64,000 nucleotides of DNA from Minisyncoccota bacterium (GCA_041667145.1 JBAYFP010000001.1:17958-81957); one strand, 5' to 3'; shown: positions 16,239 to 62,864, counted from the stretch's first letter. The notes: generated by a model not told the origin, from the letters alone. A program made the numbers and translations.

Positions 16239-16275
16239 GAGGAGGCCGGACCTTTTTAGAAGGTCCGGCCTCCTC
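16239..16275 (+). terminator. 16-bp GC-rich perfect hairpin right after the paralog-2 stop
   Basis: GAGGAGGCCGGACCTT / AAGGTCCGGCCTCCTC; no T-run follows. Confidence 0.4.
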
Positions 16276-16290
16276 TAGTTATCCACAATT

Positions 16291-16812
16291 ATGAAAAATG
16301 AAAAAAAAAATCCCAGTACTAGAGCAAAGCTCAGTACAGGACAAGGGAAGATAGTAGTAGTTAGTGGGGGATTTGATCCACTTCATATTGGACATATTCG
16401 CTATATGCAAGAGGCAAAAAAACTGGGCGATAAATTAATTGTCATTTTAAACAATGATAATTGGAAAAGACAAAAAAGAAAGCATGTTTTTATGCCTGAT
16501 CACGAACGCAAAGAAATTATAGAAGCTTTAGCTTGTGTAGACAGGGTAATTATTAGCGGACACTCTAAAAATACAAAAGGTCCTAAAAATATGAGTGTGA
16601 GCAAAGAGTTGCTTAAAATTAAACCGCATATTTTCGCCAATGGTGGAGACAGGAATGAAGAAGATGCCAAAGATCCAAACTCCTCCCAATATTTTGATGT
16701 GGAAATGTGTAAGAAACTTGGTATCCAAATGGTTTTTAACGTAGGTAGAGGCGGAAAAATCAGGAGCTCGTCTGAACTTCTCAAAGAATATTCAAAAAAA
16801 ATAAAGAAATAA
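16291..16812 (+). CDS. cytidylyltransferase-like nucleotidyltransferase (HldE/RfaE domain II / TagD-like)
   Basis: VSGGFDPLHIGHIRYMQEAKKLGD (HxGH motif), ISGHS..; N-terminus includes a palindromic GTACT element. Confidence 0.6.
   Translation: MKNEKKNPSTRAKLSTGQGKIVVVSGGFDPLHIGHIRYMQEAKKLGDKLIVILNNDNWKRQKRKHVFMPDHERKEIIEALACVDRVIISGHSKNTKGPKNMSVSKELLKIKPHIFANGGDRNEEDAKDPNSSQYFDVEMCKKLGIQMVFNVGRGGKIRSSSELLKEYSKKIKK
16312..16340. repeat. GTACT-family palindromic element (short-loop form) inside the CDS N-terminus
   Basis: CCCAGTACTAGAGCAAAGCTCAGTACAGG; compare 44881-44916 and 50562-50594. Confidence 0.55.
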
Positions 16813-34011: not shown

Positions 34012-34887
34012 ATGAAAAAATTTAGTCTAGTTTTATTTTTAATATTTTTTTTACCATTAGTATCTTTTGCTGCTAATATTTCTTTTGATTCAAATAAAGA
34101 TACCTTTTCTCAAGGTGAAGAATTTTTAGTGCAAGTTTTGTTAGACACAAAAGATGTGTCAGTGAATGCAGTAGAAGGAACTATCACATTTTCAGCTGAA
34201 TTTTTAGAACTAAAAGAGGTCAGAGATGGAAATTCGACTATTAATTTTTGGATAGAAAAACCTAATAATAAAAATGGAAATATTTCTTTTTCTGGTATCA
34301 CCACTGGTGGTTTTTCGGGGAGTAAAATGTTTTTATTTGGAATGGTATTCAAAACGAAAAAAGATGGAAACAGTCAAATGAATTTTAATAATGTAAGAAT
34401 TTTAGAGAATGATGGTATAGGTACAAAAATATCTACAAAAGAAATTCCTTTTAATTTTTCTATATCAAAAGATTTAAGTGGAAATAAAGTGGAAGATCTA
34501 ACCCTAAATGATAATGAAATGCCAGAAGATTTCACGCCATTCATAGGGAATGATTCTACTTTGTTTGGTGGGAAATATTTTATTGTATTTAGTACTGTAG
34601 ATAAAAGATCTGGCATAGACCATTATGAGGTACGAGAAAGTCCTTGGTATTTATTTGGATTTTTTGGAGGAAAATATGTAGTTACAGACAGCCCATATCT
34701 TTTGAGAGATCAAACACTTAAGGATACAATATATGTTAAAGCAATAGACAAAGCTAATAATGAGAGAATAGTAAAGATCGGAGCTCAAAACAGGCTAGCT
34801 CTATTGGAACAATGTTTAATTGTTGGTATACTTCTAAGCATATGTATTTTCTTATTCAAAAAATATGGACCAAATTTATTACGCTAA
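34012..34887 (+). CDS. cohesin-domain protein (secreted)
   Basis: signal peptide; cohesin-like beta-sandwich pattern GEEFLVQVLLDTKDVSVNAVEGTITFSAEFLELKEV. Confidence 0.45.
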   Translation: MKKFSLVLFLIFFLPLVSFAANISFDSNKDTFSQGEEFLVQVLLDTKDVSVNAVEGTITFSAEFLELKEVRDGNSTINFWIEKPNNKNGNISFSGITTGGFSGSKMFLFGMVFKTKKDGNSQMNFNNVRILENDGIGTKISTKEIPFNFSISKDLSGNKVEDLTLNDNEMPEDFTPFIGNDSTLFGGKYFIVFSTVDKRSGIDHYEVRESPWYLFGFFGGKYVVTDSPYLLRDQTLKDTIYVKAIDKANNERIVKIGAQNRLALLEQCLIVGILLSICIFLFKKYGPNLLR

Positions 34888-36001
34888 GAAAAAAATAATC
34901 AAAAAGCTTTTAATCTTAGCAATATTTTTGGGAATATTTGTTTTTTCCCCGTTTTTTGCAGAAGCTGCGACTCTATCTTTGAGTCCTTCGACTGGTATTT
35001 TTGAAACGGGTGAAAGAGTGGCTGTCAAAGTATTGGTGACATCAAACAATGTTCCTTTTAATGCAGTTTCGGGGATACTTTCTTTTCCATCTATTTTTTC
35101 TGTAGAATCTGTTTCGAAAACAAATTCAGCTCTTAACTTTTGGGTGACAGAGCCGACTATCAGTGGAGGGTCAGTAAAATTTGAAGGTATCGCTTTAGGT
35201 GGTTTTACTGGTTCTACAGGTAATGTCGTTACAATAAATCTTCGTGCGACAAAAGTAGGTGAAGGACAGGTATCTTTTAAATCTGGACAAATACTAGCTA
35301 ACGATGGAGACGGTACAGATATTACAGGTAATCTAATAGGTGCAAATTATTCTATAAAAGAAGCGACACAAAAAGCTCCACAGCCTAAACCAGAACCTAT
35401 ACCAACGCCTGAACCAGAACCAGTAGCCCCAGAAATAATCCAACCAGCTCCTTCTCTTAAAGCTCCAGAGATTATGCTTGGTGCTAAATATGGTTCACCA
35501 GCTATCATCGGAACATCTGAATATCCTGAAGCTCAAGTTTTAATGACATTCATTGCTGAGGATGGAGTAAAAGTATTCATACTAGGTGATGCAGATGTAG
35601 AAGGTAGCTTTAATATGCTGGTTCCAAATTCGTTGAAACATGGTTTATATACTGTGACAGCTGTGATGATAAAGACAGATAAGACAAATAGTCAAACTTC
35701 AAATGAAATAGTTATAAAAGTTGGTAATATTTTTTCTGATATTGGCTATGAGATATATTGGCTCATTTTGATCCTTATCCTTTTGATTTTGTATCTCGTA
35801 GCACGTATTATTTTCCATTTTAAAGACAAAAGTATAAATAAAAACTTAAAGAAAGAATTACATGAAGCTGAAGATATAATTCATAAGTCTTTTGATATTC
35901 TTCGTGAGGATGAGGTAGAGCATAAGAGTGTATCTGAGATAAAGAAAGATATTAATGAAGCGGAAAAAATAATAACTAAGGAAATTAAAGATATTGAATA
36001 G
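34865..36001 (+). CDS. membrane-anchored cohesin-domain scaffold-like protein with Pro-rich linker
   Basis: signal peptide, cohesin-like domain (GERVAVKVLVTSNNVPFNAVSGILSFPSIFSVESV), PQPKPEPIPTPEPEP linker, C-terminal TM + charged tail. Confidence 0.45.
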   Translation: MDQIYYAKKKIIKKLLILAIFLGIFVFSPFFAEAATLSLSPSTGIFETGERVAVKVLVTSNNVPFNAVSGILSFPSIFSVESVSKTNSALNFWVTEPTISGGSVKFEGIALGGFTGSTGNVVTINLRATKVGEGQVSFKSGQILANDGDGTDITGNLIGANYSIKEATQKAPQPKPEPIPTPEPEPVAPEIIQPAPSLKAPEIMLGAKYGSPAIIGTSEYPEAQVLMTFIAEDGVKVFILGDADVEGSFNMLVPNSLKHGLYTVTAVMIKTDKTNSQTSNEIVIKVGNIFSDIGYEIYWLILILILLILYLVARIIFHFKDKSINKNLKKELHEAEDIIHKSFDILREDEVEHKSVSEIKKDINEAEKIITKEIKDIE

Positions 36002-61513: not shown

Positions 61514-62786
61514 ATGAAATCACCAGAAGGCCCTAGAAAAGTAAAGAATAAAAATGAAGATGTTATTCCAGAATATGGGTTAGAAGATGGCATAAAAAAA
61601 TTAGTTAGTCTTATCCAAGAGAAAATTTCTAAAGGCATTTTGCCTGTTATTGTCAGAGTGGCTGGAGGTTCTGCTTGTGGCAAGACGACAGAAGTATCAG
61701 AGAAAATTAAAAGAATTTTTAATGAAGATGAAGTGCTTATTCTTTCCATGGATAATCATTATTTTGATAAACATCATTGGGTAAAAATGGCTAAACAAGG
61801 AATTTCTAAACCTAATGTAGATGAACCGGCTTCAATTAATTTTGCGTCAGTAGAAAAAAATGAAGAACAGTTGATAAGTGGGAAAACAATTGAAGAGCCA
61901 TTATATAGTCACAGAATGCAAGAAGCTACTAAAACAGTTACAGAACAACCGCATAATATAATTGTTGAAGAAGGTATTTTTAATCTTCTTCTTGAAAAAA
62001 AATCTGAGAGACATATCAATGTATTTGTTGATACTGATACTTATGGGAGAATGATTCGACGAGTTTATAGAGATGTAAAATATAGGATGAGACCAAATGA
62101 GACTGCAGCTGATATGCTTAAATATGTTCTTGAAACAGTTGAGCCTATGTATGAGAAGCATGTAAAGCCCACTATGGAAAATGCTGATATGATTATTAAT
62201 AATCCATTTGATCCAGAGTCTGAAACAGAAAAATTTGAGTTGAAAGAAGCGCAATTAAATTTTAAAACCGAATTAACTTCAGAAAAATTACTTGCCTTAG
62301 GTGCTAAAGTGATTGATCAAGCAGAGCAGGTAGATTATTACTATAATCCCAAAAACTTAGATGAAACTGGGGAAACTTTGAGAATTCGTCATGAATTTAG
62401 GATAGGCGAGGAAGAAAATAATGAGAAAGAAACTATTTTTTTTTGGTTACAAAGGACCTGAGAAGGGTGTTGAATCAGATTTTAGAGTACATCCAAAATT
62501 AGAATTTGAAATAGATAAAGATGCTGAAAAAAAATTTATAGAAACATTTGGTGATCATACAAAAAGAATAGAAAAAGATAGGATTTTGTACGAACTTGAT
62601 GGGGTAATGTTTTTTCTTGATGATGTTGTAAAAATTGAAAAAGGTGATGTACAGACTTATTTAGAAAAGTTTATAGAAATTAGATCAACTGATAAAGAAA
62701 TTAACGATGAAAAGATAAAATCTTTGGTTTCAAAACTTGGTCTTAAAATGGAAGATGGAATAAAAACTCCTTATTCTAAGATGTAA
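61514..62786 (+). pseudogene. P-loop kinase (uridine kinase/PRK family)-CYTH domain fusion, frameshifted at a T9 tract
   Basis: Walker A AGGSACGKTT; CYTH (ELKEAQLNFKTEL..ETLRIRHE; YKGPEKG..); frames 61514-62461 and 62421-62786 rejoin if T9 (62436-62444) is read as T8. Confidence 0.6.
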
Positions 62787-62789
62787 TGT

Positions 62790-62864
62790 GTGGGCGGCAC
62801 AGGAATCGAACCTGTTACCTTGTCTACGTCAAAGACACGCTCTAGCCAAATGAGCTAGCCGCCC
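62790..62864 (-). tRNA. tRNA-Val (GAC)
   Basis: GGGCGGC acceptor, anticodon loop UUGACGU, T-arm ACAGG TTCGATT CCTGT; 75 nt. Confidence 0.85.

Follow-up and report, generated by a model that had tools for sequence, protein, structure and literature searches.

ORF1 and ORF2, two open reading frames in the 64-kb stretch of DNA analysed here (the window), are by ancestry a single gene, which encoded a TTM1-like protein composed of a P-loop kinase and a C-terminal CYTH/TTM domain. The gene is split within its CYTH part, at a run of nine T's. The split is probably the result of a real, recent and non-programmed replication-slippage mutation, by which a tract of eight T's (T8) was lengthened to nine (T9), and the lesion is possibly leaky. 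The two ORFs are annotated in the database as two hypothetical proteins of a Candidatus Paceibacterota MAG. The elements of the locus are as follows:

61514-62786, plus strand: whole ancestral gene, TTM1-like P-loop kinase with C-terminal CYTH/TTM domain, 423 aa with T8
61514-62461, plus strand: ORF1 as encoded, 315 aa (MFA6585615.1, WCS86_00425)
62421-62786, plus strand: ORF2 as encoded, 121 aa (MFA6585616.1, WCS86_00430)
62436-62444, plus strand: T9 homopolymer, exactly nine T's in the context AAACTA-TTTTTTTTT-GGTTAC
62406-62458, plus strand: interval in which the frame has to change; the last stop in the ORF2 frame ends at 62405, and the ORF1 stop is at 62459-62461

Reading frames at the T tract

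Both ORFs are on the plus strand, and the frame of ORF2 is +1 relative to that of ORF1. ORF1 comprises the kinase domain, strands 1-3 of the CYTH domain and half of strand 4, and it ends with a five-residue out-of-frame tail, WLQRT, followed by TGA. ORF2 comprises the rest of strand 4, strands 5-8 and the C-terminal helices. The tail of ORF1 and the head of ORF2 are the same 41 nt read in different frames, and the ATG of ORF2 at 62421 is probably fortuitous. Deletion of one T from the tract (T9 to T8) joins the two frames into a 423-aa fused product, in which the tract is read in frame as ATT TTT TTT GGT (I-F-F-G). The Pfam CYTH profile PF01928 matches ORF1 alone only at positions 7-58 of 179, the first third of the profile, and ORF2 alone has no Pfam match. 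The T8 product is matched from position 7 to position 179 of 179, with an E-value of 1.7e-8 and a score of 34.9 bits vs a cut-off of 23.2.

With two A/T runs of nine or more bases per 64 kb, the chance of finding such a run inside the 53-nt frame-change interval is about 0.002. The T tract and the frameshift are therefore linked and do not coincide by accident. The indel cannot be placed to the base by alignment because the T run codes for Phe in all frames, and the T9 tract is most likely its site, by far ahead of any other position in the interval.

Homologs of the fused protein

A search of 5.8 billion proteins yielded 40 proteins with both a PRK and a CYTH domain. All 40 are unsplit, and the best of them is 48% identical to the protein described here. 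They have one of two architectures: CYTH-PRK-CYTH with about 575 aa, and PRK-CYTH with about 380-420 aa, as here. The alignment of the T8 product with 28 unsplit homologs is unbroken at the junction, where ETIFFGYKGP is found opposite ILTYKGP, LFGYKGP or FFTYKGP, and the residues directly past the junction, Y312-K313-G314, are invariant. The homologs have F/L-rich codons at the site of the tract, for example ACATTTTTTACA in locus L020.

The comparison was extended to 22 loci from species-representative genomes, which included Jacksonbacteria, Saccharibacteria, Falkowbacteria, Micrarchaeota, Nanoarchaeota and others. All 22 are open through the matched region and none is split at the site of the T tract. 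A single open frame over a motif-bearing match is present in 20 of them; another locus (L030) is open, distant and without the YKGP motif. The Peribacteria locus L021 was considered as a second split gene and rejected. Its apparent stop is an in-frame TGA at a family-invariant Gly, which means that the gene is read with genetic code 25 (UGA = Gly) and is not split.

Of 1.84 billion 50%-identity representatives, 133 were found by a filter-free HMMER search with E-values of 1e-30 or lower. Nearly all of the best 150 representatives listed cover both domains, and ORF1 and ORF2 are the one split pair among them. A recurrent break near query residues 281-315, suggested by four proteins, was also rejected, as none of them is broken at the site of the T tract: the sequence of P0125 continues past the site before it diverges, P0188 is a homolog of full length but divergent, and P0068 and P0163 appear to be fragments cut off at contig ends. 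The gene context of the intact homologs is not conserved, so that their neighbours give no clue to function. One homolog (P0040) has an added UPRTase domain, and this links the family to pyrimidine salvage.

An earlier note on this DNA had described the T9 run at 62436-62444, the ORFs in adjacent frames, and a Walker A motif (AGGSACGKTT) followed by the first part of a CYTH domain in ORF1. The coordinates and frames were confirmed in the sequence, and the motif is present, together with a Pfam PRK match and the partial CYTH match given above. The proposal that the ORFs are halves of one kinase-CYTH gene, which join if T9 is read as T8, is borne out by the full PRK and CYTH matches of the T8 product, by the end-to-end CYTH domain, by the unbroken alignment across the junction and by the orthologs, none of which is split. 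The same note had called the kinase-CYTH fusion uncommon, and this does not hold in view of the 133 representatives and of the crystal structure of the same module (7z66/7z67). The fusion is a known architecture, of wide occurrence among CPR bacteria and DPANN archaea.

The kinase domain

61649-62200, plus strand: PRK/uridine-kinase-like domain, residues 46-229 (PF00485, E 1e-24)
61661-61690, plus strand: Walker A motif (P-loop) AGGSACGKTT, residues 50-59; the family-invariant Ser55 is Cys here

The match to PF00485 over residues 46-229 has a score of 88 bits vs a curated cut-off of 22. The Walker A sequence fits the pattern GxxxxGK[ST], and G51, G56, K57 and T58 are invariant across the family. 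The PDB sequences matched by the kinase half are the uridine kinases 3w8r and 3asy, with E-values of about 6e-19. The protein has the P-loop fold of Udk/UCK2 (PDB 3asy, 1udw) and resembles them in sequence over residues 44-230 (E 6e-19); the TM scores are about 0.73-0.77, and the Walker A motif, the Asp of SMD(D/N) and the RR..RD lid motif are all kept. Unlike Udk/UCK2, it is fused to a CYTH domain, has several family-invariant residues substituted, and remains below the cut-offs of the NCBIfam uridine-kinase equivalogs NF004018 (120.4 bits vs 180) and TIGR00235 (115.8 bits vs 220.3). Judged from these sequence matches, the kinase half is uridine-kinase-like and not a certified Udk. Six of the 28 residues of the kinase domain that are invariant in the homologs have been lost (S55C, G85D, E106A, H177Y, E231P and Y232F). 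This divergence marks a long-branch member of the family, and the predicted activity may differ.

The CYTH domain and its predicted structure

62231-62774, plus strand: CYTH/TTM tunnel domain, residues 240-420 of the fused product; the frameshift follows residue 309
62246-62260, plus strand: position of the CYTH ExExK signature, located by alignment; E-A-Q-L-N here

The C-terminal CYTH domain of the prokaryotic family has the signature E-x-Q-x-K. The corresponding residues here are E245-A-Q247-L-N249, in which Lys249, invariant in the 28 homologs, is replaced by Asn (K249N). The basic residues R290, R292, K313, K328, K354, R356 and R390 are invariant in the alignment and are candidates for the lining of the tunnel. 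Arabidopsis TTM1 (AtTTM1) has Gln in place of the glutamates of the ExExK signature; its tunnel lacks catalytic activity and has been proposed to regulate the kinase (PMC9582702). By analogy, the catalytic competence of the CYTH domain described here is doubtful, as it is for AtTTM1. Since its metal-binding signature is degenerate, as in AtTTM1, the domain most likely binds a phosphate-rich ligand and would regulate the kinase rather than hydrolyse the ligand.

An AF2 model was built on the repaired (T8) sequence. It has a pLDDT of 88.4 and a pTM of 0.83, and consists of the kinase domain followed by an eight-stranded barrel, whose pLDDT is mostly 80-96 between residues 244 and 391. The predicted CYTH strands are residues 244-251, 265-277, 288-296, 305-313, 324-333, 350-361, 364-375 and 379-391. 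According to the model, the frameshift is inside strand 4 (305-313), and would leave 3.5 strands in ORF1 and 4.5 in ORF2. An insertion of about 10 aa just 5' of the T tract corresponds to the variable β3-β4 loop, where the homolog P0045 has an insertion of similar length. The top Foldseek match for the model is AtTTM1 (7z67), with an E-value of 3e-24 and both domains aligned; the sequence match to 7z66 has an E-value of 4.5e-12. The barrel superimposes on archaeal TTMs with TM scores of 0.73-0.77 for SaTTM (7ns9/7nsa) and 0.74 for PH1819 (2een).

Preservation of the two halves

The preservation of the gene was assessed at conserved columns defined from the 28 homologs alone, with the identity expressed relative to the homolog-homolog identity:

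Kinase domain: deviations at 20 of 63 columns conserved at 90% or more; 22 of 28 invariants kept; relative identity 0.69
CYTH part in ORF1: deviations at 4 of 23 such columns; 9 of 10 invariants kept; relative identity 0.78
CYTH part in ORF2: deviations at 3 of 26 such columns; 11 of 11 invariants kept; relative identity 0.93

Over the whole protein, 27 of the 112 conserved columns deviate, and most homologs deviate at 0-5. ORF2 is open for 121 codons in DNA of 33% GC, and none of 20000 shuffles of this DNA stays open. There is a single lesion, and no stop is found in ORF2. This complete preservation of ORF2 implies that the lesion is recent, that it is leaky or compensated at the level of expression, or that it is artefactual. 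The residues lost in the kinase domain and the K249N substitution suggest that the gene was perhaps already under altered or relaxed constraint, which blurs functional inference.

Length of the tract and probable reality of the extra T

The number of A/T runs in the window decreases geometrically for lengths from 4 to 8, with each further base reducing the count to 0.39 of the preceding one. There are 27 runs of length 8, one of 9 and one of 10. The two runs of nine or more bases compare with about 20 expected (P = 5e-7), a depletion of about tenfold, and the T9 run is the only T run of this length in the window. A/T runs of nine or more bases are thus avoided in the genome, and T8 is therefore the natural state of the tract. 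Nearly all the long runs (28 of the 29 with eight or more bases) are inside ORFs, where only T9 disrupts a gene: none of the ORFs with the 26 A8/T8 runs is disrupted, and the A10 run at 16301-16310 is in frame and leaves its gene unbroken.

The possibility that the assembly is prone to homopolymer errors was considered and rejected. Where other ORFs overlap in pairs and have Pfam matches, each is a complete gene of its own; the overlapping pair 34012-34887/34865-36001 has no Pfam match. The intact genes with A8/T8 runs, together with these complete overlapping pairs, indicate that the assembly is not generally error-prone at homopolymers.

The T9 tract is identical, with 0 mismatches, in a MEGAHIT-style ENA contig (k141_1691909, 203 kb, ERZ27249449) and in a 2050-bp Logan contig from SRR6484324, and the NCBI and JGI/IMG records contain the same two split proteins. 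This agreement between assemblies of different construction, and between the records, makes a pure assembler quirk unlikely. The ENA and Logan assemblies possibly share reads, and their agreement is then compatible with a homopolymer error of a systematic kind. Among 15 billion protein sequences, none is the exact T8 product. The same locus with a T tract of any length, T9 included, has no match in JGI metagenome contigs, and a protein-level scan of the JGI metagenomes for close relatives gave none. In the population sampled, the dominant genotype most likely does have the extra T, which is most likely a recent gain.

Slippage and possible rescue

The exact T8 product can be obtained from the T9 gene by two routes: deletion of one nucleotide by RNA polymerase, or a +1 slip of the ribosome on UUU_UUU_U. 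A -1 ribosomal shift on U_UUU_UUU and a transcript with one additional U were rejected as means of rescue, as each gives the wrong frame and a stop after 19 codons. The RNA polymerase of E. coli shows about 10% deletion-type rescue on a T8 reporter (PMC6260861). The bypass frequency increases about 3.4-fold per repeat base, and indel formation also rises steeply with length (PMC3812077). In a genome-wide study, the slips made during transcription of homopolymers were mostly insertions; deletions were rarer, and transcription errors restored no reading frame (PMC5574713).

No stimulatory structure is predicted in the RNA around the tract (fold z-score 0.16), no hairpin is located ahead of the U run, and there is no SD-like element at a functional distance from the tract. 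An Rfam search of the surroundings finds only the neighbouring tRNA-Val. Neither the T tract nor the split is conserved in the relatives (22 loci; best 150 representatives). A minor leak of full-length protein is plausible, with rescue speculative for this organism, and an efficient switch at T9 is not supported.

Alternative explanations of the split

The earlier note had offered a sequencing or assembly error, a fresh pseudogene and slippage-based switching as explanations. These were the right options, and they have been narrowed, as an assembler quirk is unlikely and programmed switching unsupported. A sequencing or consensus artefact, in which the organism has T8 and an intact gene of 423 codons and the additional T was introduced during library preparation, base-calling or assembly, is a rather unlikely reading. 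It would explain why the frame is restored when the window's longest T run is shortened by a single base, in a genome that otherwise caps its A/T runs at 8; however, T9 recurs in the two differently built assemblies, and NCBI and JGI/IMG both list the split proteins. The absence of decay in ORF2 is equally expected under a true T8, and the MAG comes from a single sample for which no second population was found for comparison. An assembly that made such errors would have to be reconciled with the 26 A8/T8 runs and the in-frame A10 run that leave their genes intact. A consensus indel at a 9-mer is unusual in short-read assemblies, and this too counts against an artefact, if the platform was short-read. 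An old pseudogene, inactive for a long time and in decay, is disfavoured and highly improbable. The divergence of the kinase (20 of 63 conserved columns, 6 of 28 invariants) and K249N in the CYTH domain might be taken as signs of decay, but this divergence precedes the break, whereas decay that set in after truncation would be expected to show behind it. Moreover, there is only a single lesion, ORF2 is the best conserved part (11 of 11 invariants, ratio 0.93), and its 121 open codons at 33% GC were matched by 0 of 20000 shuffles.

A functional switch, in which a phase-variable T8/T9 tract or programmed slippage sets the ratio of kinase-only to full-length protein, perhaps in response to UTP, is improbable. 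Neither tract nor split is conserved in any relative, and neither a stimulatory hairpin nor an SD-like element at a functional distance accompanies the tract. T9 does have a length at which the slippage of bacterial RNA polymerase is measurable (PMC5009743; PMC6260861), and a +1 ribosomal slip on UUU_UUU_U would give the same product; however, the common slips, +1U insertion and the -1 shift, stop after 19 codons, and only the rarer deletion helps. The perfect maintenance of ORF2 would suit a switch, and the truncated form could differ in function, as the TTM domain of AtTTM1 keeps its kinase inactive (PMC9582702), but the truncated product would have an incomplete barrel. The tract is also unlike typical contingency loci in being located inside a β-strand, in the 3' third of a housekeeping-type gene. 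The more specific idea of a UTP-sensitive slippage switch, maintained at T9 in a kinase of pyrimidine salvage, is barely credible. If it were true, RNA polymerase would pause and slip on U9 at low UTP, the products being the full kinase-CYTH protein vs a kinase without its autoinhibitory tunnel, and nucleotide supply would be coupled to enzyme form in a salvage-dependent CPR symbiont. It is scarcely to be expected, finally, that the two ORFs are a true two-gene arrangement, with ORF2 started from its own ATG (62421) and its part of the CYTH domain reassembling with the half-barrel of ORF1. NCBI annotates two CDSs, and the ATG is preceded at 8 nt by GAGGA, in a leader that is A/T-rich as elsewhere in the window; yet an SD-like core precedes only 4 of 49 ORF starts in the window, and GAGGA, being part of the G-E-E codons, carries little weight. 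The predicted cut in the middle of a β-strand, rather than in a loop, argues against two genes, as do the tail of ORF1 and head of ORF2, which are out-of-frame readings of the same 41 nt, and the finding that no homolog is split (22 loci; best 150 representatives).

Proposed origin and consequences of the T9 tract

In the preferred explanation, the recent and non-programmed slippage mutation, a T8 tract coding for I-F-F-G in β-strand 4 of the CYTH domain would have gained one T in this Paceibacterota lineage. Eight bases is the longest homopolymer normally tolerated in this genome, and such a run is a hotspot of replication slippage. The main product would then end at 315 aa and consist of the kinase and 3.5 of the 8 barrel strands, with the other 4.5 strands left in the +1 frame. 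Some full-length protein, a minor, leaky fraction, might still be made when RNA polymerase drops one U on U9. Alternatively, the leak might be due to a +1 slip of the ribosome on UUU_UUU_U.

Relation to known systems

The closest described architecture is that of Arabidopsis TTM1/TTM2 (7z66/7z67; Pesquera et al. 2022, PMC9582702), in which, as here, a UCK-like kinase is N-terminal and a CYTH/TTM barrel C-terminal. TTM1/TTM2 are defined by a kinase followed directly by a TTM domain in one polypeptide; the repaired gene encodes such a tandem, and T9 interrupts it. The ExExK signature is degenerate with Gln in both proteins, which points to a ligand-binding or regulatory tunnel and not to a hydrolase. 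The differences from AtTTM1 are also considerable. The sequence identity is only about 20%, and the orientation of the domains differs in the model, with global TM scores of 0.44-0.47. AtTTM1 has a coiled coil and a C-terminal transmembrane tail anchor, which are plant-specific (PMC9582702); these are missing here, where the CYTH profile ends at residue 420 of 423, too close to the C-terminus for any additional domain. AtTTM1 is mitochondrial and has both signature Glu residues changed to Gln, whereas the protein described here is bacterial (CPR), has E-x-Q-x-N and is frameshifted.

The PRK-CYTH and CYTH-PRK-CYTH proteins of CPR bacteria and DPANN archaea (for example P0002, P0012 and P0022) are full-length homologs with 38-48% identity and E-values down to 1e-96. 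They share with the protein described here 42 invariant residues, among them the YKGP that follows the junction directly, and those of about 380-420 aa also agree with it in their two-domain architecture. Unlike the gene described here, all of them are unsplit, and most have an extra N-terminal canonical CYTH domain (E-I-E-R-K). Their database labels are 'class IV adenylate cyclase' or 'uridine kinase', and no experimental characterisation of the prokaryotic kinase-CYTH family was found.

The arrangement of the frames resembles that in Shigella mxiE/spa13, Thermus dnaX, Citrobacter tssM and the poly(A) genes of Buchnera/Blochmannia, where a run of about nine A's or T's separates the frames and the full-length product would likewise need slippage of the polymerase or ribosome (cases of slippage on A/T runs, both programmed and non-programmed, are reviewed in Atkins et al. 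2016, PMC5009743, and in PMC4256274). In those genes the tract is conserved or the rescue has been shown experimentally, usually by insertion. The T9 tract, in contrast, is found in one MAG only and needs a 1-nt deletion or a +1 ribosomal shift.

The T9 case is an ordinary homopolymer mutation or error, probably a recent one, and not a new mechanism. If T9 is real, it is a further homopolymer indel in a reduced AT-rich genome, partly rescuable by slippage, and this phenomenon is well known. In annotation, WCS86_00425 and WCS86_00430 are better treated as one frameshifted TTM1-like kinase-CYTH gene. The tandem kinase-TTM module was earlier described as special to plants (PMC9582702), but in CPR bacteria and DPANN archaea it constitutes a family that is sizeable and as yet uncharacterised. 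These organisms rely on nucleotide salvage, and the kinase-CYTH family may merit biochemistry, for which the frameshifted copy would be a poor choice.

Homopolymer tracts in the window

A/T runs of at least 9 nt are far rarer in the whole window than the distribution of shorter runs predicts: two are observed against about 20 expected (P = 5e-7), the expected number being an extrapolation of the geometric fall-off seen between lengths 4 and 8. Runs of exactly 8 nt number 27, nearly all of them within genes. The abrupt ceiling at 8 is consistent with selection against slippage-prone tracts. Besides the T9 that splits the kinase-CYTH gene, the sole A/T run of 9 nt or longer is an A10 at 16301-16310, associated with the following features:

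16240-16274: 13-bp GC-rich inverted repeat (AGGAGGCCGGACC...GGTCCGGCCTCCT), between the preceding gene and the cytidylyltransferase-like gene
16291-16812: cytidylyltransferase-like gene (PF01467)

The A10 occupies codons 4-7 of this gene (MKNEKKNPST...) in frame, and the reading frame is unbroken. The tract is slippage-prone and lies close to the gene start.

Other candidate breaks

A homolog of 325 aa found in the representative search, P0125, reads through the equivalent of the T9 site (ILTCKGPRESGVFCKRP) and then continues into unrelated sequence in place of the family KFEFEID. This divergence may reflect a separate frameshift, arisen in another lineage, or faulty assembly there. Further candidates are a PRK-CYTH homolog from a complete Candidatus Peribacteria genome and a pair of adjacent ORFs in the window:

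CP060226.1 (HK-STAS-PATE-10), locus L021, 4370-4372: in-frame TGA in the PRK-CYTH homolog
34012-34887 and 34865-36001, + strand: neighbouring ORFs with a 23-nt overlap

Under table 11 the Peribacteria gene appears as ORFs of 175 and 230 aa. Because its TGA falls precisely at a family-invariant glycine (FVDL-TGA-THGRMLRR), the sequence indicates that UGA encodes glycine in this genome (genetic code 25), making the split a false one. Neither ORF of the adjacent pair has a Pfam match; the two may be distinct genes or the pieces of a further split gene.

Gene boundaries and translation starts

The kinase-CYTH gene is followed by a convergent tRNA gene:

62790-62864, - strand: tRNA-Val(GAC)

The stop codon of ORF2, the downstream CYTH piece, is only 4 nt from the near end of this gene, with no terminator-like hairpin between them. 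A Shine-Dalgarno-like core of at least 4 nt at a spacing of 3-12 nt precedes 4 of the window's 49 ORF starts, the upstream regions of which are merely A/T-rich. The genome is almost without Shine-Dalgarno motifs.

The kinase-CYTH family and the divergent copy

Members of the family (P0002-P0040; L003-L023, L083-L085) occur in CPR bacteria (Jacksonbacteria, Saccharibacteria, Falkowbacteria, Peribacteria) and in DPANN archaea (Micrarchaeota, Nanoarchaeota). Most carry an extra N-terminal canonical CYTH domain (E-I-E-R-K). Their database label, 'class IV adenylate cyclase', has no evident experimental basis. In one member of 718 aa (P0040) a UPRTase domain is added at the C-terminus, a feature that points towards pyrimidine salvage.

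Frameshift aside, the window's copy (kinase domain and CYTH motif at 61514-62260) is a long-branch member. Of the 28 kinase-domain residues that are invariant across 28 homologs, it has lost six (S55C in the P-loop, G85D, E106A, H177Y, E231P and Y232F), and the CYTH signature Lys is replaced by Asn (K249N). These substitutions suggest that function may be altered or relaxed upstream of the break.
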